In this document: one piece after another, positions 2,660-51,052 of the stretch
Layout: every line of letters starts with the position of its first letter
Position numbering within the stretch: position 1 is the stretch's first letter
Origin: an uncultured Chloroflexia bacterium
GTDB lineage: Bacteria > Chloroflexota > Limnocylindria > Limnocylindrales > CSP1-4
Length of the DNA: 64,000 bases
Assembly: GCA_963719285.1 (NCBI GenBank)
Contig: CAVRBO010000004.1
Span: forward strand, 324,898 to 388,897
Direction of reading: 5' to 3'
Translations under genes and position numbers: made by a program
The notes under the pieces: generated by a model
Database searches by the model: none
Told to the model about the DNA's origin: nothing
The model's input: only the letters and a program-made list of their open reading frames with translations

Positions 2660-3228
2660 GCGACCCGTCCGCTGCGCCCGCGCACTCCGCGCCGCCCCGG
2701 GCCCTGCCCGGCGGCGGCCAGCTCCGTCGCCACGTCCTGGTGGCCATCGTCAACAACCGTCCCGGCGTCCTGAACCGCGTGGCCAGCCTCATGCGGGCGC
2801 GCAACTTCAACATCGAATCGTTGGCGGTCAGCCACACGGACGACATCGACATCAGCCGGATGACGCTCACCCTGCGCGGCGACGACGTCGCGGTCGAGCA
2901 GGCCGCCAAACAGCTCTACCGGCTCATCGACGTGCTCAAGGTCCAGGACCTGACCGCCGAGCGGACCGTCGAGCACGAGCTCGCGCTGGTGAAGGTCCGC
3001 GCGACCGACGCCGACCGGGCCGAGGTCATCAAGGTCGTCGAGATGTACAAGGGGAGGGTCGTCGACGTGGCCGACGGGTCGGTCGTGGTCGAGGCGACCG
3101 GCACGGAAGGGGAGGTCGACTCGCTCATCGCCCTGCTCCGCGGGTTCGGCATCAAGGAGCTCGTCCGCACGGGGACCATCGTGATGACCCGTGGCGCGCA
3201 ATCGATCGAGGAGGCCACCAAGCGATGA
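2656..3228 (+). CDS. ilvN: acetolactate synthase small (regulatory) subunit, ACT domain
   Basis: [32 protein letters not shown]... is typical of IlvN/IlvH. ATG at 2656 overlaps the ilvB stop. Confidence 0.9.
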
Positions 3229-4274
3229 CCGCGAAGATGTACTACGACAACGATGCCGATCCGTCCGCCCTGGCCGGCCAGACGGTCGCCATCGTCGGCT
3301 ACGGCAGCCAGGGCCATGCGCATGCGCTCAACCTGCACGAGTCGGGCGTGGACGTCGTCGTCGGGCTCCAGCCCGGCTCCAAGAGCCGTCCCCTGGCCCA
3401 GGAGGCGGGCCTCCGGGTGGCCGACGTCGGCGACGCCGTACGGGCGGCGGACGTGATCATGATCCTGGTCCCCGACACGGGCCAGAAGGCCGTCTACGAC
3501 ACGGACATCGCCCCGAACCTGCGGGCGGGCCAGCTCCTGATGTTCGCCCACGGCTTCAACATCCACTTCGGGCGGATCGACCCGCCCGGCGACGTGGACG
3601 TCGGCATGGTCGCGCCGAAGGGCCCGGGCCACCTCCTGCGCAGCGTCTACCAGGCCGGCGGCGGCGTGCCCGCGCTGTTCGCCGTTCATCGCGACGCGAG
3701 TGGCACCGCGCGTGCCCGTGTCCTGGCCTATGCCCGAGCCCTTGGCTCGACCCGGGCCGGCGTCCTCGAGACCACCTTCGCCGAGGAGACCGAGACCGAC
3801 CTGTTCGGGGAGCAGTCCGTCCTGTGCGGCGGCACCGCCTCGCTCGTCAAGATGGCGTTCGAGACGCTCGTCGAGGCGGGCTACCAGCCCGAGCTCGCGT
3901 ACTTCGAGACGATGCACGAGCTGAAGCTCATCGTCGACCTGATGTATCGCGGCGGGCTCAACTTCATGCGCTTCTCGGTCAGCGACACGGCCGAGTATGG
4001 CGACTACGTCAGCGGCCCCCGGATCATCGACGAACGCGTCCGCGAGACGATGCGCCAGGTTCTCGGCGAGATCCAGGACGGCACGTTCGCCCGGAACTGG
4101 ATCGCCGAGAGCGACGGTGGCCGTCACGAGTTCGAACGGCTGCGCGCCGCCGACCGCGACCATCAGATCGAACAGGTCGGCGCCGAGCTGCGCAGCCAGA
4201 TGGCGTTCCTCAACCCGGTGACGGTCGTGGCCGGCCAGGCCCAGGCGGCCGCCAGTTCGGGCTCTCGGTCGTGA
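3225..4274 (+). CDS. ilvC: ketol-acid reductoisomerase (class I KARI)
   Basis: N-terminus [33 protein letters not shown] and the [11 protein letters not shown] motif. ATGA overlap with ilvN. Confidence 0.92.
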
Positions 4275-44225: not shown

Positions 44226-46226
44226 CTACTTCAGGTAGAACTGCAGGTCGAGCTGCGCCCACTGGTAGAGGGCCGCCCAGGACGAACCGTTGGTCGTCCG
44301 CTGGGCCTGTCCATCGCCGAAGACGAACGACCGGAAGCCGACGTCCGTGCCCTCCCGGATGGGAGTCGCCGTGTACGTCGTCCCACTCGCCGTCGAGAGT
44401 CGGATGCTGTAGGTGGAACCCTTGGCCAGGGTATGGGTCTTGCCGAAGGATGCCCTGACCCAGACCTGGCCGCCGTTGTCGCCGCCGGGGGAGGTGGCCG
44501 GCACCGAGCTCGCCGGGATGCTCACCGAGTCGATGAGCGCCCCGGAACTGGACTCGAGCCGGATGATGAGCGGGCTCGAACCGCTCGACCGGCGCATCCG
44601 GACCGCGACGCTCGAGATCTTGCGACTGCTGCCGCTGACCTTGAACCGCTCCCGGACCATGTGGGTCGAGCCGGAGATGGTGCCGTAGTAGTCGATCTGG
44701 GCGGCCACGTAGCCGTCGCCATCGTGGACCCCGTTGGAGTACCCGACGTCCATGTCGGCGGTGTACTTGCCCATGACCGCCCACGACCCGCCTCCGTTGG
44801 CGAGCACGGCGTAGTTCGTGTCGGTCCAGCGAGGCTGGCGCGGCGAGAGCACGCTGCCGTAGACGAACGTCTCGTTGACCGAGATGAAGTTCGACCGGGG
44901 CGACGAGCTGGTGTTCTGGAACACGATGTAGTAGAGGTGCCCGGCCGTGAGCCTGGCCGGCTTCGAGAACGTGACCCGGTCGAAGGTGTTGATCCCGGAA
45001 CTGCCCGGGGTGTACGACGCCGACGTCAGGATCGTGCCTGACGGCCGCCCGTGGCCGTCGTCCGGCCTGACGCTGATGCGCATCGTGCCGCCGTTGCCGC
45101 CCGAGTAGCCGGCTCCACGTCGCTGTGCGAAGCGGACGCTCACGACATTGGACGTGGTGCTCGCCCGGAACCGGTGCGCGACCATGTTGTTGGCCGAGCT
45201 CGTGTCCGTGCCACCGACCTGGATCTGCGCCTTCGTGTCGGCGTTGATCCCGGTCCCGTAGAGGCCGGACGTACCGCCACTGGCGGCGACCGGCGGCGCG
45301 GCTGGCGGCGGTGGCGTGGCCACCGGGATCCCGAGCCGGACCTCGGCGGTCGACGTGCTCGTCGGATGGCCCGCGATGGAACGATAGAAACCGGAGCTGG
45401 ACGACTTCGTATCGGTCCGGCCGACCCAGCTGTGACCGCGGGTCGAGCTGAACGTCTTCACGTGGTCGTAGTTGCCCGAGGCGTTCCGCCACATCCGGTC
45501 GACTGACATGTTCTTCGTGAACACGCCCCGGATGTACGTGAGCGGGTAGTGGAACTGGTCCGCGATCACGGCTCCCGCGCCCGCGTAGAGGAACCCCGCG
45601 GCGTAGTTCGAGATCCGCTTCCGGGCGACCGTGAGTGACGGAGCCGACTGGCCCGGCTCACTCCCGCCCGAGGCGTACGCGGCCCGGGACAGGACGACCA
45701 CGGCGTGGGCGGACAGGTTGACTGTCCGGATGTACTTCTCGCCGTAGAACTTGATGGCCGTGCTGCCATGATTCTCGCGTGGATTGAGCCCGAGACCGTC
45801 CTCGCTCACCTGGTTGAGCTTGGAGCTGTAAGGGGACGGGAATCCGCGACCGCGGCCGATGTACACGACCAGCGATGCGCCTTCCATGGCGGCCTTGACC
45901 TTGGTCCAAGTGGCCCGCGGCGAGAAGACCGTGACGACATTCGATGTGTAGCGCCGGGCCTCGGTCGCGGCGGCGCGACCCCAGCTCAGGTTGGTCGAGG
46001 TCTGGGTACCGGCGGGGCCGACGATGATCGCGACTTTCGGCGCGACGGCGGCGGCGGCGGGGGCCGCGACCGCGAATTGGAGGCCCATCAGCGCGAGCGT
46101 GATGATCGCGCCGGCGATGAGCGGCCGGACGGGACGACGGGACGCCCTCTGGGCGCCGTTGGCGGTGGACCGCAATAGATTCTCCTCTCCACCAGAACAC
46201 CGCACGGCATGCGGCGACGGAGTCAT
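44226..46226 (-). CDS. paralog B of the secreted-protein array (RR signal anchor, unique ~330 aa N-terminal module, PPPP linker, conserved C-terminal domain)
   Basis: Start taken at MTPSPHAVRC (46226; CAT verified on the plus strand), giving ...RASRRPVRPLIAGAIITLALMGL signal anchor. C-terminus ...TSGLYGTGINADTKAQIQVGGTD...QLDLQFYLK is homologous to A, C and D. Confidence 0.7.
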   Translation of the reverse strand: MTPSPHAVRCSGGEENLLRSTANGAQRASRRPVRPLIAGAIITLALMGLQFAVAAPAAAAVAPKVAIIVGPAGTQTSTNLSWGRAAATEARRYTSNVVTVFSPRATWTKVKAAMEGASLVVYIGRGRGFPSPYSSKLNQVSEDGLGLNPRENHGSTAIKFYGEKYIRTVNLSAHAVVVLSRAAYASGGSEPGQSAPSLTVARKRISNYAAGFLYAGAGAVIADQFHYPLTYIRGVFTKNMSVDRMWRNASGNYDHVKTFSSTRGHSWVGRTDTKSSSSGFYRSIAGHPTSTSTAEVRLGIPVATPPPPAAPPVAASGGTSGLYGTGINADTKAQIQVGGTDTSSANNMVAHRFRASTTSNVVSVRFAQRRGAGYSGGNGGTMRISVRPDDGHGRPSGTILTSASYTPGSSGINTFDRVTFSKPARLTAGHLYYIVFQNTSSSPRSNFISVNETFVYGSVLSPRQPRWTDTNYAVLANGGGSWAVMGKYTADMDVGYSNGVHDGDGYVAAQIDYYGTISGSTHMVRERFKVSGSSRKISSVAVRMRRSSGSSPLIIRLESSSGALIDSVSIPASSVPATSPGGDNGGQVWVRASFGKTHTLAKGSTYSIRLSTASGTTYTATPIREGTDVGFRSFVFGDGQAQRTTNGSSWAALYQWAQLDLQFYLK

Positions 46227-46495: not shown

Positions 46496-48511
46496 TCAGC
46501 GGAAGTAGAACTGGATATCCACCGGGCTGTACTGGTAGAGGTCCGCCCAGGTCGTGCCATTGCCGGAGCTCTGGCCGGAGCCGTCCCGGAAGGCCGTGGA
46601 CATGAGGCCCACGTCGGTGCCTTCGCGGATCGGCGCGGCCGTGTACTCCGTCCCGGACGGCGTGGTGAGGCGGAGGTTGTACGACGTTCCGTTGACCAGC
46701 GTGTGCGCCGAGCCGAAGGTCACTCCGACCCACACCGAACCGCCGTTGTCGCCGCCCGCCGCGCTCGCCGGGACGGAGCTGGCGGCGACATTGGCCGAAT
46801 CGATGAGCGTGCCGGAGCCTGTCTCCAGGCGGATCGTGAGCGGGCTCGAGCCGCTCGTCCGGCGGACCCGGACGAAGGCCTTGCTGATCGTGCGGTCGCC
46901 GCCCGAGACCGTGAAGTGCTCGCGGACGGACGCCGAGCCCGAGATCGTCCCGTAGAGTTCGACGATGTTCGCGATGTAGGCCATCCCGTCGTGGACGCCG
47001 TTCGAGTAGGCGAGGTCCATGTCCGCGGTGTACCTGCCCTCGACCGACCAGCTCGACGGGGCGGCGGTCAGGACGGCGTAGTCGGCGTCGGCGAACGCCG
47101 GCTGGCGGGGGGTCAGGGTGGAGCCGTAGACGAAGAGCTCATTGACGCTGAAGTAGTTCCCGACGGGATTCGCGTCGATGTTCTCGAACACGATGTAGTA
47201 GCGCGAGCCCTTCGTGAGCGTGGCCGGCGACGGGAAGGTCACCGCGTCGTACGTGGTCCAGGCGCCGGACGGGTTGCCCGGCGAGTACGTGGCCGCGGCG
47301 AGCACGGTGCCGGACGGAACGCCGCTGGCGTCGGTCTGGACGGTGATCCGGTATGTCCCGCCGTTACCTCCGGAATAGATCGGCCCGCCGCGTTGCTGGA
47401 AGCGCACGCTCTTGAGCGCGGAGGTCGTGCTCGCGACGAACCGGTGGGCGACCTTCGCCCGATCCGTCCAGCCGACCTGCAGGTTGGCCTTGGTGTCGAA
47501 GTTGAACGCGGCCCCGTAGATCCCGCCGGACCCGGGCTGGGGTGTGGTCGTGGGATCCGGGGTCTGGGTCGCGCCCGGCGTCGCCGTCGGCTTCGCGGTG
47601 GGATCCGGCGTGGCGGTCGGGTCCGTGGTCGCGGTCGGATCGGGCGTCCCGGTCGGATCGGGGCTTGCCGTCGCGGTGGGATCCGGCGTCGCGGTCGGGT
47701 CCGCGCCGCTGGGCATGGTCGTGAACGTGAAGTCGGTCGAGACCGACAATCGGCCACCGGCGTCCTGCGAACGGACCCGGTAGTGATACTGCGTGCCGGG
47801 CGCGAGGCCCGAGACCTTCTGAGCGTGGGCGGTGTACTGGAGCGACTTCTCCGGCGCGGTCTCCTGGCCGTAGGCCGTCGTCGTGCCGTAGTCGACCTGC
47901 CCGGTGGCGGGTTCGTCCAGTCGCCAGGTGACGAGTGCCGCCGTGTCACTGACGCTCGTCGCCTTCACCAGGCTGATCGATGGAGGCGTCGTCCTTCCCG
48001 GGTTCTTGCGCGTGACCCGGACATTCACGGTCGTGACCGCGGGTGTGTGCGGGAGCGCCGAACGGGCGAGCGTGCCGGCGACGACCCTGACGGCCGAGGT
48101 GCGATCGACCCGCGAGAAGGTCGCGCTGTGGACCCCGCTCGTGGCCGTGCCGGGGATCCGCAGATGGCCGTGGAACGTGCCCTTGACGCTCGGCCAGACG
48201 AGCCGGATCGCCCTCGGGACCGAATCCCAGTGGACCTGGTAGACCGCATGGGCCTTGAAGCCGCGCCCGTCGATGATGACCGTCTGGCCGGGGGCACCCG
48301 ACCCGGTCACGGAGACCGTGGGCCCGCTCGCGGCGTTGTCGATGTCATCGGGCGCCGGTGATGCGCTCCAGGCGAGGGCCGGGACGAAGAGCAGGAGGCC
48401 GATCGCGACGGTGAGGATGGGCAGTCGGCGCTTCGAGCTCGATCGTCTGGCCGGGGTCGACGGCGCGACGGCCGGGTCGGTGACCCAGGCGGTTCCATTC
48501 CAGAACGTCAT
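46496..48511 (-). CDS. paralog C of the secreted-protein array (N-term MTFWNGTAWVTD tail, RR signal anchor, Ig/Fn3-like modules, Pro/Thr/Asp linker, conserved C-terminal domain)
   Basis: Fn3-like segment ...LVTWRLDEPATGQVDYGTTTAYGQ...SGLAPGTQYHYRVRSQDAGG..., linker TATPDPTATASPDPTGTPDPTATTDPTATPDPT, then GIYGAAFNFDTKANLQVGWTD...VDIQFYFR. Confidence 0.75.
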   Translation of the reverse strand: MTFWNGTAWVTDPAVAPSTPARRSSSKRRLPILTVAIGLLLFVPALAWSASPAPDDIDNAASGPTVSVTGSGAPGQTVIIDGRGFKAHAVYQVHWDSVPRAIRLVWPSVKGTFHGHLRIPGTATSGVHSATFSRVDRTSAVRVVAGTLARSALPHTPAVTTVNVRVTRKNPGRTTPPSISLVKATSVSDTAALVTWRLDEPATGQVDYGTTTAYGQETAPEKSLQYTAHAQKVSGLAPGTQYHYRVRSQDAGGRLSVSTDFTFTTMPSGADPTATPDPTATASPDPTGTPDPTATTDPTATPDPTAKPTATPGATQTPDPTTTPQPGSGGIYGAAFNFDTKANLQVGWTDRAKVAHRFVASTTSALKSVRFQQRGGPIYSGGNGGTYRITVQTDASGVPSGTVLAAATYSPGNPSGAWTTYDAVTFPSPATLTKGSRYYIVFENIDANPVGNYFSVNELFVYGSTLTPRQPAFADADYAVLTAAPSSWSVEGRYTADMDLAYSNGVHDGMAYIANIVELYGTISGSASVREHFTVSGGDRTISKAFVRVRRTSGSSPLTIRLETGSGTLIDSANVAASSVPASAAGGDNGGSVWVGVTFGSAHTLVNGTSYNLRLTTPSGTEYTAAPIREGTDVGLMSTAFRDGSGQSSGNGTTWADLYQYSPVDIQFYFR
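47530..47705. repeat. degenerate tandem repeats encoding the (D/T)PTAT(P/A) linker in paralog C
   Basis: Repeated ggtgggatccggcg / gtcgcggtcgg(g/a)tc units seen in sequence. Confidence 0.4.
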
Positions 48512-48517
48512 GCGATC

Positions 48518-48605
48518 GTGTCTCCGTTCGGCAGCCCGGCTGACTCAGGGAGTTCCGTGGCTTTGCGACCCCGTCTCGCGGCGGGTGTGCTATTTCGTGG
48601 GACAT
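48518..48605 (-). ncRNA. candidate c-di-GMP-I (GEMM) riboswitch in the 5' leader of paralog C
   Basis: Minus-strand RNA: CACGAAAUAGCACACCCGCC-GCGA-GACGGGGUCGCAAAGCCACGGAACUCCCUGAGUCAGCCGGGCUGCCGAACGG, followed by GAGACACGAUCGC-AUG. Matches remembered GEMM-I hallmarks: GCA(A/c)ACC before a GNRA-capped P1 hairpin, then GGG(A/u)CGCAAAGCCACGG, then AGCCGGG..CCGAA. A near-identical copy lies upstream of paralog D. Confidence 0.45.
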
Positions 48606-48783: not shown

Positions 48784-48811
48784 ACCGCGGGACCCGTCGA
48801 TGGGTCCCGCG
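48784..48811 (-). terminator. hairpin ccgcgggaccc-gtcgat-gggtcccgcgg ~45 nt downstream of the paralog D stop
   Basis: 11-bp perfect stem seen in sequence, followed on the minus strand by the U-containing stretch UCCGAUUCC. Likely separates the D and C transcripts. Confidence 0.35.
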
Positions 48812-48853
48812 GAAGGAAGGTTTCGATCGCCGCCGGGCAGCGGCGTCCGGTGA

Positions 48854-50959
48854 TCAGCGGAAGTAGAACTGGATGTCGACCGGGCTGTAGGCGTACAGGT
48901 CCGCCCAGCTCGTCCCGTTGCTCGAGCTCTGGCCCGAGCCGTCGCGGAAGGCGGGGGAGAGGAGACCCACGTCGGTCCCTTCGCGGATCGGCGCGGAGGT
49001 GTACGTGGTGCCCGACGCCGTCGCCAGGCGCAGGTTGTAGGCCGTCCCGTTGGCGAGAGTGTGCGGGCTGCTGAAGGTCACCGTGACCCAGACCGACCCG
49101 CCGTTGTCGCCGCCCGGCGCGCTTGCGGCGATGGAGCTCGCCGGGACGTCGACCGCCTCGATGAGCGTGCCCGCGCCGGTCTCGAGCCGGATGGTCAGCG
49201 GGCTGGAGCCGCTCGTCCGGCGCACCCGGACCGATGCCTTGGTGACGGTGCGGTTTTCGCCGCTGACCGTGAAATGCTCACGGACCGACGCGCTGCCCGA
49301 GACCGTCCCGTACAGCTCGATGATGTTGGCGATGTAGGCCATCCCGTCATGGGTCCCATCCGCGTAGGTGAGATCCATGTCGGCGGTGTACTTGCTCTGG
49401 ACGGACCAGGTCGAGGGAGCCGCATAGAGGACCGCGTAGTCCGCGTCGGCGAAGGCCGGCTGACGGGGGGTCACGGCGCTGTAGGTGTACAGCTCGTTGA
49501 CGCTGAAGTAGTTGGCGGCCGAGTTCGCGTCGACGTTTTCGAACACGATGTTGTAGCGGATGCCCTTGGTCAGAGTGGCGGGGCTGCTGAACGTGACCAG
49601 GTCGTAGTGGGTCCACACGCCCGAGTTGCCCGGCGTGTAGCTGGCCGTCGCGAGGATCGTCCCGGAAGGCACGCCGTTCGAGTCGGTCTGGACGGTGATC
49701 CTGAGGGTGCCGCCGGTGCCGCCGGAGTAGATGGGCCCGCCGCGCTGCTGGAAGCGGATGCTCTTGAGGGCCGAGGTCGTCGTGGCCACGAACCGGTGGG
49801 CGACCTTCGCGTGATCGGTCCAACCGACCTGCAGGTTGGCCTTGGTATCGAAGTTGAACGCGGCTCCGTACGTCCCGGTCTGGCCGGGAGCCGGGGTCGC
49901 GGTCGGGGCGACGGTCGGAGTCGCCGTCGGGGCGACGGTCGGAGTCGCGGTCGGGGCGACGGTCGGAGTCGCCGTCGGGGCGACGGTCGGTGTCGCCGTC
50001 GGGGCGACGGTCGGTGTCGCCGTCGGCGTCGCGGTCGGGGCGCTCGTCGGTGTCGCCGTCGGGGTCGCGGTCGGAGCGACGGTCGGAGCGACCGTCGGGG
50101 TCGGGCTCGCCGCTCCGCCGATCGTCTTGAACGTGTCGTCGGACGAGACCGACAGGCGGCCGGCGGCATCCTGCGATCGGACCCGGAAGTGATAGACGGT
50201 CCCGGCGAGGAGGCCGCTCACCTGCTGGACGTGAGCGGAGTAGCGGAAGGATGTCTCGGCGGTCGTCAGGCGACCGTAGGCGGTCGTGGTGCCGAATTCG
50301 ACCTGGCCGGTGGCCGGCTCATCCAGGCTCCAGGACACGATCGCGCCGCTCGAACCGATGCTCGTCGCCGTCACGGCGCTGATGCGCGGTCCCGTCGCCG
50401 TCGTCGGGGCCGGGGTCGGGGTCGGCGTGGCGGTCCCGTTGGCGACCACGAACGTCGCGCTCGTGGTGGCGCGGCCGGCGGCAGTGACCGCGGTGACCGA
50501 GATCGTGTGCGAACCATTCGCCACCGTGGAGGTGTTCCAGGCGTTCGCGGTCTCGTTGTCGGCGGTCCCACGGAGGTCCCATGGAGCCGCCGCTTCGACG
50601 CGCATCGGCGTCGTGGTCATCGCGACGTCATCGAGCCAGAAGGTGACGCTGCTGGCGACGGTCTTGGTGGCCAGGAAGACGTAGCGATTGCCGGCGAGCG
50701 TGGCACCGTTGAGGGCGAACGGCTTGCTGCGGGTCCGGGCGGCAGAGGCGTCCAGCATGAAGCCGGTATTGGGCGTGGCGGCCGTGGACGAACGGTGGGC
50801 GGCTGCGACGGGCAGCTGGGGGAGGGCGACGGCGGCGGCGACGGCGAGGGTCACCACGGCCAGGAAGGGCACGCGGGCGAGGCGATGGAGACGCCGGGCG
50901 GGGACATGAGCGGGAGTGGTCGTTTCAGTGACCCAGGAGGTCCCATTCCAGGACGACAT
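48854..50959 (-). CDS. paralog D of the secreted-protein array (N-term MSSWNGTSWVTE tail, RR signal anchor, beta-sandwich module, Fn3-like module, long PT linker, conserved C-terminal domain)
   Basis: ...SWSLDEPATGQVEFGTTTAYGR...SGLLAGTVYHFRVRSQDAAG..., (ATPTVAPT)n linker, then GTYGAAFNFDTKANLQVGWTD...VDIQFYFR. RBS GGAG 10 nt upstream. Confidence 0.75.
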   Translation of the reverse strand: MSSWNGTSWVTETTTPAHVPARRLHRLARVPFLAVVTLAVAAAVALPQLPVAAAHRSSTAATPNTGFMLDASAARTRSKPFALNGATLAGNRYVFLATKTVASSVTFWLDDVAMTTTPMRVEAAAPWDLRGTADNETANAWNTSTVANGSHTISVTAVTAAGRATTSATFVVANGTATPTPTPAPTTATGPRISAVTATSIGSSGAIVSWSLDEPATGQVEFGTTTAYGRLTTAETSFRYSAHVQQVSGLLAGTVYHFRVRSQDAAGRLSVSSDDTFKTIGGAASPTPTVAPTVAPTATPTATPTSAPTATPTATPTVAPTATPTVAPTATPTVAPTATPTVAPTATPTVAPTATPAPGQTGTYGAAFNFDTKANLQVGWTDHAKVAHRFVATTTSALKSIRFQQRGGPIYSGGTGGTLRITVQTDSNGVPSGTILATASYTPGNSGVWTHYDLVTFSSPATLTKGIRYNIVFENVDANSAANYFSVNELYTYSAVTPRQPAFADADYAVLYAAPSTWSVQSKYTADMDLTYADGTHDGMAYIANIIELYGTVSGSASVREHFTVSGENRTVTKASVRVRRTSGSSPLTIRLETGAGTLIEAVDVPASSIAASAPGGDNGGSVWVTVTFSSPHTLANGTAYNLRLATASGTTYTSAPIREGTDVGLLSPAFRDGSGQSSSNGTSWADLYAYSPVDIQFYFR
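49893..50112. repeat. 24-bp tandem repeat (~9 copies, cgtcggggcgacggtcgg(a/t)gtcgc) encoding (TPTVAPTA)n in paralog D
   Basis: Near-perfect tandem copies seen in sequence. They are in-frame and length-variable in principle. Confidence 0.65.
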
Positions 50960-50967
50960 GCGATCTT

Positions 50968-51052
50968 GGCTCCATTCGATGACCCGGCTGACTCAGTGAG
51001 TCCCGTGGCTTTGCGGCCCCGTCTCGCGGCGGGTGTGCCATTTCGTGGTCCC
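50968..51052 (-). ncRNA. second candidate c-di-GMP-I (GEMM) riboswitch, in the 5' leader of paralog D
   Basis: Minus-strand RNA: CACGAAAUGGCACACCCGCC-GCGA-GACGGGGCCGCAAAGCCACGGGACUCACUGAGUCAGCCGGGUCAUCGAAUGG, followed by AGCCAAGAUCGC-AUG. The aptamer core is ~90% identical to the paralog C copy. Differences are concentrated in the 3' segment adjoining the RBS. Confidence 0.45.

Follow-up and report, generated by a model that had tools for sequence, protein, structure and literature searches.

A GEMM-I-fold aptamer with a GEMM-Ib-type pocket, probably a translational OFF switch, in the leader of a secreted-protein gene of a Chloroflexota exopolysaccharide cluster

Which cyclic dinucleotide is sensed by the leader of a secreted-protein gene in an uncultured member of the Chloroflexota, and what would its binding do to the gene? 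The window analysed in the present study (the whole stretch of 64,000 nucleotides, 64 kb) had been predicted to carry, ahead of a gene termed paralog C, a c-di-GMP-I (GEMM) riboswitch controlling translation. We find a GEMM-I-fold aptamer with a GEMM-Ib-type pocket, in which the closing helix P1 overlaps the Shine-Dalgarno (SD) sequence of paralog C. We hold with moderate confidence that the whole is a cyclic-dinucleotide riboswitch acting as a translational OFF switch on this gene; its ligand, its direction and its effect on expression we infer from the nucleotide sequence.

Identity of the aptamer

An Infernal scan of the 64-kb window against 4227 Rfam families yielded exactly two matches at gathering thresholds, both full-length matches to RF01051 (c-di-GMP-I) on the minus strand. 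The match at 48527-48601 (copy 1) scores 53.4 bits against a gathering threshold of 35 (E = 1.3e-07), covers model positions 1-87 and lies directly upstream of the 671-aa open reading frame of paralog C, while the other (copy 2), at 50975-51049, scores 52.6 bits. No match to c-di-GMP-II (RF01786) was found in the window at gathering or E-value thresholds. The original prediction of a GEMM-I riboswitch in this leader, which was to be abandoned if Rfam returned no hit, is thus upheld by an RF01051 score above gathering, and the motifs that it listed are found in place on the minus strand (...UGUCCCACGAAAUAGCACACCCGCCGCGAGACGGGGUCGCAAAGCCACGGAACUCCCUGAGUCAGCCGGGCUGCCGAACGGAGACACGAUCGCAUG). Two details required correction: the leader had been transcribed as GCACACC followed by CCCGCC, which is two C too many (the actual text is GCACA-CCCGCC-GCGA-GACGGG-G), and the GNRA-capped hairpin, although present, is P2 (P1a) and not P1.

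In the Rfam alignment copy 1 forms a P1/P2/P3 three-way junction with a GCGA tetraloop on P2, and its CCACGG and AGCCGG segments fit the consensus (Table 1). Over 15 relatives, pairing on the named structure reaches 91.9%, and with the partners slid it falls to 26-43%. The register on the 3' side was set from the Gs1761 architecture as outlined in its published description (P3 A42-U73, J1/3 G74-C75, P1 from C76, with C75 bonding the ligand), which makes 48531 the equivalent of C92 and 48564 that of A47.

Table 1 Features of the two aptamers and of the three paralogous genes in the window
Feature	Position	Strand	Basis or description
Complete copy 1 aptamer including P1	48522..48602	-	RF01051 53.4 bits; own covariance model R1 97.1 bits
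P1 5' strand UCCCACG; pyrimidine run complementary to SD (anti-SD)	48596..48602	-	Alignment A2, columns 19-25 pair with 92-100
J1/2 junction AAAUA	48591..48595	-	Rfam alignment; register against copy 2 and Gs1761 architecture
A, equivalent of Vc2 G20 / Gs1761 A14	48591	-	RF01051 model position 11
U, equivalent of Gs1761 U13	48592	-	Register against copy 2 and Gs1761 architecture
P2 hairpin CCCGCC-GCGA-GACGGG, one C.A mismatch	48570..48585	-	97.8% paired across subclass
GNRA tetraloop of P2	48576-48579	-	Sequence
A, equivalent of Vc2 A47 / Gs1761 A41, intercalates between ligand bases	48564	-	GCAAAG invariant in 15/15 subclass leaders
Short P3 AGCC-A-CGG-AACUC / CCU / GAGUC-AG-CCG-GGCU; CcAcgG / AGCcgg elements	48533..48562	-	95% paired
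J1/3 junction G-C	48531..48532	-	Gs1761 J1/3 (G74-C75) between last P3 pair and first P1 pair
C, equivalent of Vc2 C92 / Gs1761 C75, Watson-Crick partner of ligand G-beta	48531	-	Alignment A2, column 91
P1 3' strand CGAACGGAG, includes SD GGAG (48525-48522)	48522..48530	-	Sequence and alignment A2
Copy 2 aptamer upstream of paralog B; G20 (51039), A47, U92 (50979)	50970..51050	-	RF01051 52.6 bits; R1 93.4 bits; alignment A2, columns 30 and 91
Paralog C, 671 aa	46496..48511	-	MTFWNGTAWV N-terminus, signal anchor, FN3-like domain, Pro/Thr-rich linker, C-terminal all-beta domain
Paralog B, 701 aa	48854..50959	-	58% identical to C, full length
Paralog A	44226..46178	-	Shares C-terminal domain only (55-58% identity); no aptamer

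By E-value the top match within the clan is c-di-GMP-I-GGC (RF03167), which copy 1 resembles in high GC content, short P3 and annotated P1. Membership of this family was rejected: the score of 51.3 bits falls below the gathering threshold of 59, and the A47 position lacks the G that defines the variant, the segment reading GCAAAG and not GCGAAG. By these features copy 1 is a GEMM-I-fold aptamer and not a GGC variant, and we regard the GEMM-I fold, together with a purine cyclic dinucleotide as the class of ligand predicted for it, as secure. Like Vc2 and RF01051 generally, it has a three-helix junction, a GNRA-capped P2, the CcAcgG/AGCcgg elements of P3, the A47 and C92 equivalents, a 5'-leader site and a position suited to the repression of translation. 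It departs from Vc2 in having A for G at the G20 position and in placing the SD within the P1 3' strand, not in a separate downstream anti-RBS arrangement, and from the RF01051 consensus in a J1/2 that is one nucleotide shorter and a very short P3 (variable region of 6 nt versus 18). We therefore assign 48522-48602(-), on its sequence features, to a known riboswitch class as a newly found member that carries the already described GEMM-Ib pocket variant, here on a translational platform and in a host group for which it is unreported.

Copy 1 carries three A.C mismatches, at 48574/48581 in P2, 48542/48554 in P3 and 48526/48598 in P1, and relatives pair at these sites as G-C, U-G or A-U. The mismatches could lower the stability of copy 1 or render its folding pH-sensitive.

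The base-reading pocket and its ligand

RF01051 model position 11 is unpaired and lies immediately 5' of the basal G-C pairs of P2; it corresponds to Vc2 position 20 and is A in copy 1 and G in copy 2, the two leaders aligning without gaps around it (AAAUAGCAC versus AAAUGGCAC). In Vc2, G20 reads the ligand's G-alpha, and natural cGAMP (GEMM-Ib) riboswitches have A at this position (PMC6140456). The triplet at positions 20/47/92 of copy 1 is A/A/C, the GEMM-Ib signature, and it is preceded by U at position 19 as in Gs1761; copy 1 reads A-A-U-A, matching A11, A12, U13 and A14, which are among the contacts described for Gs1761. Copy 1 thus joins a GEMM-I fold to A20 and keeps both A47 and C92, as is expected of GEMM-Ib, and has A at 48591 where a c-di-GMP-specific sensor would have G.

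The same A occurs in L001 and L002, the metagenomic contigs carrying the closest full-length homologs of protein C. On each contig a single RF01051 aptamer (56.1 and 55.7 bits, respectively) precedes the C-like gene and has A at model position 11. Judged by these leaders, A20 in copy 1 is no accident. The statement that the leader reproduces most invariant nucleotides had passed over the base before GCAC, the Vc2 G20 equivalent, which is A and not G. For the same reason c-di-GMP cannot be retained as the ligand in the form first proposed, since the base at 48591 is the defining difference that separates GEMM-I from GEMM-Ib and the A is kept in orthologous leaders.

The nearest characterised likeness is found in the GEMM-Ib riboswitches of Geobacter (Gs1761, Gmet_0970; PDB 4YAZ), which share with copy 1 a U followed by A at the G20 position (U13-A14), the retained A41/A47 and C75/C92, and regulated genes with extracellular or surface functions. 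They differ in that the host of copy 1 has 71% GC, that its nearest leader relatives come from Chloroflexota and Actinomycetota MAGs and not from Deltaproteobacteria, and that the Geobacter switches are described as transcriptional ON switches, whereas copy 1 is translational and probably OFF.

Given this pocket (A20 after U, A47 and C92), 3',3'-cGAMP should bind at least as well as c-di-GMP, and we consider it likely that copy 1 would behave in this way in vitro. That cGAMP is also the physiological signal here is a more tentative proposition, to which we give slightly less than an even chance. c-di-GMP is itself a possible ligand of copy 1, since protonation of the adenine enables A20 aptamers to bind it; the Vc2 G20A mutant binds c-di-GMP at 53 nM and cGAMP at 120 nM, and the natural aptamer Cbe 1-2 is bispecific (PMC6140456). 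As some natural A20 aptamers are bispecific, sequence by itself cannot settle the choice between cGAMP and c-di-GMP, and the ligand of copy 1 may be 3',3'-cGAMP, both dinucleotides, or c-di-GMP at an altered affinity.

Distribution of the leader and of its pocket variants

Fifteen leaders, comprising the two copies in the window, L001, L002 and eleven MAG loci (mostly from Chloroflexota, with one Actinomycetes MAG), form a subclass with a short P3, an SD directly after ...CCGAA and an open reading frame starting M-F-W-[DN]-G-x-x-W. Position 20 is A in nine of the fifteen, G in five and C in one; A47 is invariant (15/15), and C92 is C in 14/15, the exception being copy 2 (U). Codons at the starts of these reading frames differ synonymously, which shows that selection on the peptide motif acts on the protein.

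The N-terminal peptide itself, M-F-W-[DN]-G-x-x-W-[VIL]-x-[DE], precedes a signal anchor and always follows an MFW[DN]G-class riboswitch. It is present in the window at 48482-48511(-) and 50930-50959(-) and elsewhere at L001, L002, L009, L048, L053, L056, L057, L071, L081, L084, L091, L100, L118, L127, L136 and L141, its conservation as a protein sequence extending over Chloroflexota and Actinomycetota MAGs. It matched no Pfam or NCBIfam model and may be a sorting or regulatory motif.

A scan of species-representative genomes with a pattern that left position 20 free recovered at least 120 loci (L003-L122), and 134 aptamers were aligned using a covariance model built on the subclass (alignments A4 and A5). 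All counts from this set refer to aptamers fitting the search pattern, among the matches listed. The triplet 20/47/92 was G/A/C in 89 of these high-GC GEMM-I aptamers, A/A/C in 33, U/A/C in three and G/A/U in two, A20 thus making up 25%. By phylum, among the matches listed, A20 was found in 19/42 aptamers from Gemmatimonadota, 7/16 from Chloroflexota, 1/29 from Actinomycetota and 0/21 from Pseudomonadota. Its strongest correlate was the preceding base, U19 occurring in 16/33 A20 aptamers versus 4/92 G20 aptamers (p about 5e-8; 134 aptamers, among the matches listed).

Copy 2 has all helices intact, with two of the A.C mismatches of copy 1 repaired, and differs from copy 1 in the G at position 20 and in a J1/3 of A-U instead of G-C. 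In L001 and L002 the aptamer is present only at the C-like paralog, and copy 2 is therefore a derived duplicate. A further metagenome scan with U92 fixed (L123-L169, alignment A7) gave 41 distinct U92 aptamers, 37 with G20 and four with A20. The 37 G20/U92 aptamers have no MFW reading frame downstream; the four A20/U92 aptamers are those of L141, of L136, L146 and L161, of L127 and of L132, and the first two of these are MFWDG-class leaders. All four combinations of (A/G)20 with (C/U)92 therefore occur in one leader family. They parallel the laboratory series of Vc2 mutants G20A, C92U and G20A/C92U (PDB 3MUM, 3MUV), the pockets of which are matched by copy 1, by copy 2, and by L136 and L141, respectively; the engineered double mutant was reported to bind c-di-AMP. 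Compared with those mutants, the pockets described here are natural, conserved sequences of one leader family, and the comparison is one of sequence.

The four combinations would fit diversified specificity, graded affinity for one ligand or a relaxed pocket equally well. Under the first of these, copy 1 (A/C) may be of cGAMP type, followed in the series by copy 2 (G/U), with G/C relatives of c-di-GMP type and A/U relatives of c-di-AMP type. We considered whether copy 2 could be a flipped cGAMP pocket, with G20 reading G and U92 reading A in co-adaptation, and keep this idea as no more than speculation: there was no association to support it, and the MFW[DN]G members with U92 mostly have A20. 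It would seem unlikely that adjacent paralogous surface-protein genes have been wired to different cyclic dinucleotides through one diversified scaffold. Were this so, riboswitch signalling by cGAMP, and possibly c-di-AMP, would extend to Chloroflexota, Gemmatimonadota and Actinomycetota, for which our literature search returned no such report. In either case the two adjacent, near-identical leaders, which differ mainly at base-reading positions, amount to a compact natural experiment on pocket specificity.

That A20 is abundant in Gemmatimonadota and Chloroflexota, and that one leader family contains a natural two-by-two series of pockets, is a pattern that we do not regard as established. 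It bears on annotation, as copy 1 and about one quarter of the sampled related high-GC aptamers would automatically be called c-di-GMP riboswitches, while A20 is the one substitution known to turn the GEMM-I pocket in favour of 3',3'-cGAMP. Should cGAMP be the preferred ligand of A20 aptamers, its housekeeping signalling would be far wider than the cases of Geobacter, Myxococcus and Bdellovibrio and would reach soil phyla from which few members have been cultured; otherwise, these aptamers would constitute a natural series of affinity-tuned c-di-GMP sensors.

Clustered aptamers were also observed. L125 has four GEMM-I-like aptamers in approximately 750 nt (2917-3675), two per strand, which suggests divergent tandem riboswitches on this metagenomic contig. 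Three Actinomycetota MAGs (L082:1280-2707, L098:3848-4638 and L111:1920-2714) carry two to three G20 aptamers at a spacing of approximately 600-750 nt, each followed by a similar ...GCCUCGGCCGGCACCUCCUCGGAGG tail, an arrangement suggestive of repeated short riboswitch-controlled units.

Probable control of translation

The GGAG at 48525-48522 lies 10 nt before the AUG (48511-48509), in agreement with the ribosome-binding site originally described, and the Rfam aptamer ends 15 nt before the AUG. These 15 nt contain no terminator-like site; transcription attenuation was accordingly rejected, a terminator neither fitting nor being found before the AUG, and control is placed on translation or stability. 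This accords with the translational control first proposed, the 3' strand of the aptamer running directly into the SD.

Across the subclass the 5' flank (UCCCACG in copy 1, CACUCACG in L053, CACCCCACG in L056 and GACCCUCG in L057) pairs with ...CG-AA-(U/A/C)GGAG in alignment A2, so that the SD constitutes the distal part of the P1 3' strand. In this alignment 79% of P1 cells (columns 19-25 with 92-100) are paired and double-sided changes occur at three pairs (AU to UA, two cases; CG to UA, one case; CG to UA, two cases), a modest covariation given that the subclass sequences are approximately 90% alike. An SD within the P1 3' strand, conserved pairing and the lack of an intervening terminator are together the marks of a translational riboswitch.

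We propose that a ligand bound in the pocket would stabilise P1, the closing helix of the binding junction, which in the Gs1761 architecture as described lies next to the ligand site. Stabilised P1 would hold the SD in pairing with the pyrimidine run just 5' of the aptamer, and with the SD hidden less of the secreted paralog C would be synthesised. Ligand-stabilised P1 probably blocks ribosome binding in this manner as an OFF switch, a direction read from geometry only. GEMM-I riboswitches of both signs are known, Vc1 being ON and Vc2 a translational OFF switch that also controls RNA stability.

Folding of single sequences was dropped as an arbiter between ON and OFF, since minimum free energy (MFE) and constrained folds varied with the extent of sequence folded (70% GC) and gave no stable partner for the SD. 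A long closing helix running through the AUG was likewise rejected as a general means of blocking the SD, being strong only in the two copies of the window and in L001. A test of cognate versus non-cognate long helices in 16 leaders gave a weak result (overall permutation p about 0.02; Mann-Whitney p 0.085), and we treat this helix as lineage-specific.

Alternative explanations

The main rival to the pocket assignment holds that copy 1 is an ordinary c-di-GMP riboswitch in a host that makes no cGAMP, A20 merely lowering affinity and the paralogous leaders setting different c-di-GMP thresholds. The affinities of Vc2 G20A and Cbe 1-2 given above speak for it, as do the four pocket combinations of the leader family, which are what graded tuning to one signal would produce, and the behaviour of Vc2 C92U, in which the c-di-GMP response is strongly weakened without being abolished. 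Furthermore, cGAMP riboswitches and Hypr GGDEFs are described in the literature as narrowly distributed, our literature search found no paper tying either to Chloroflexota or Gemmatimonadota, and within the 64-kb window we found neither a cGAMP synthase (Hypr GGDEF or CD-NTase) nor an open reading frame with a GGDEF/EAL motif. We nevertheless rate this reading as rather unlikely. Experiments have proven that changes at position 20 switch selectivity either way, A20G for example turning Gmet_0970 from cGAMP-selective to c-di-GMP-selective (PMC6456294); A20 is conserved in the orthologs and is the majority state of the subclass; it is linked with U19, a combination known from a solved cGAMP riboswitch; and the strength with which it clusters by phylum points more to lineage-specific signalling chemistry than to drift.

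A different output from the same aptamer, in which the ligand activates translation by drawing the anti-SD strand into a bound-state fold and freeing the SD (ON), or acts mainly on mRNA stability, appears to us distinctly unlikely. The SD sits inside the conserved P1 3' strand and pairs with the P1 5' strand with compensatory changes, P1 is the helix that ligand stabilises in the GEMM-I fold, and no conserved alternative anti-SD partner was found. These points have to be set against the ON behaviour of Vc1 and of the Geobacter GEMM-Ib switches, the effect of Vc2 on RNA stability in addition to its OFF control, the MFE structures that shift with the sequence folded, and the more usual biology, in which cyclic dinucleotides activate matrix-associated proteins. 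It is highly improbable that the locus is a relic without function, or that it matches merely by chance because the DNA is rich in GC: the three A.C mismatches of copy 1 would be in keeping with decay, as would the absence of an aptamer from the paralog A gene and from other paralogs in L001 and L002, but the match is 18 bits over the Rfam gathering threshold (with the E-value given above), the two aptamers are approximately 90% identical while their proteins are 58% identical, and the leader is kept in metagenomic orthologs and across phyla. A GEMM-Ib-type pocket on a translational OFF switch thus continues to be the reading that we prefer.

The regulated protein and its genomic context

Paralog C comprises a hydrophobic signal anchor, a confident FN3-like domain (residues about 175-270) and a confident all-beta domain (330-671). 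A fold search with protein C gave matches to solved structures for the FN3 module alone (TM 0.1-0.2), and therefore no enzymatic function could be assigned. The C-terminal domain forms the core of a family for which Pfam has no model; in paralog A, which probably starts at a TTG near 46176, it passes the NCBIfam cutoff for 'choice-of-anchor R'. Composition-based statistics in BLASTP returned only a 32-aa HSP between B and C despite 58% identity over 700 aa, and an earlier impression that the two share only their N-terminus was overturned once these statistics were switched off; the percentage identity and coverage listed for P0005 in the homolog search are subject to the same artefact.

The three paralogs lie within a Wzx/Wzy-type exopolysaccharide cluster (window positions 30319-53905), which also encodes a Wzz-like P-loop protein, AsnB, an epimerase, a Polysacc_synt_3 flippase, a DUF7033 protein, two GT4 glycosyltransferases, a Wzy_C (Wzy-like) protein and a divergent CapD/WbpM-like gene. 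The description of the regulated product as a secreted matrix-type protein is fair, in that it is a secreted or anchored beta-sandwich protein encoded in such a cluster.

A perfect 11-bp GC-rich hairpin with a weak U tract was observed at 48785-48812(-), approximately 40 nt past the stop codon of paralog B (CCGCGGGACCC-AUCGAC-GGGUCCCGCGG). It was missed by the terminator consensus scan and is probably a terminator between the B and C transcription units.
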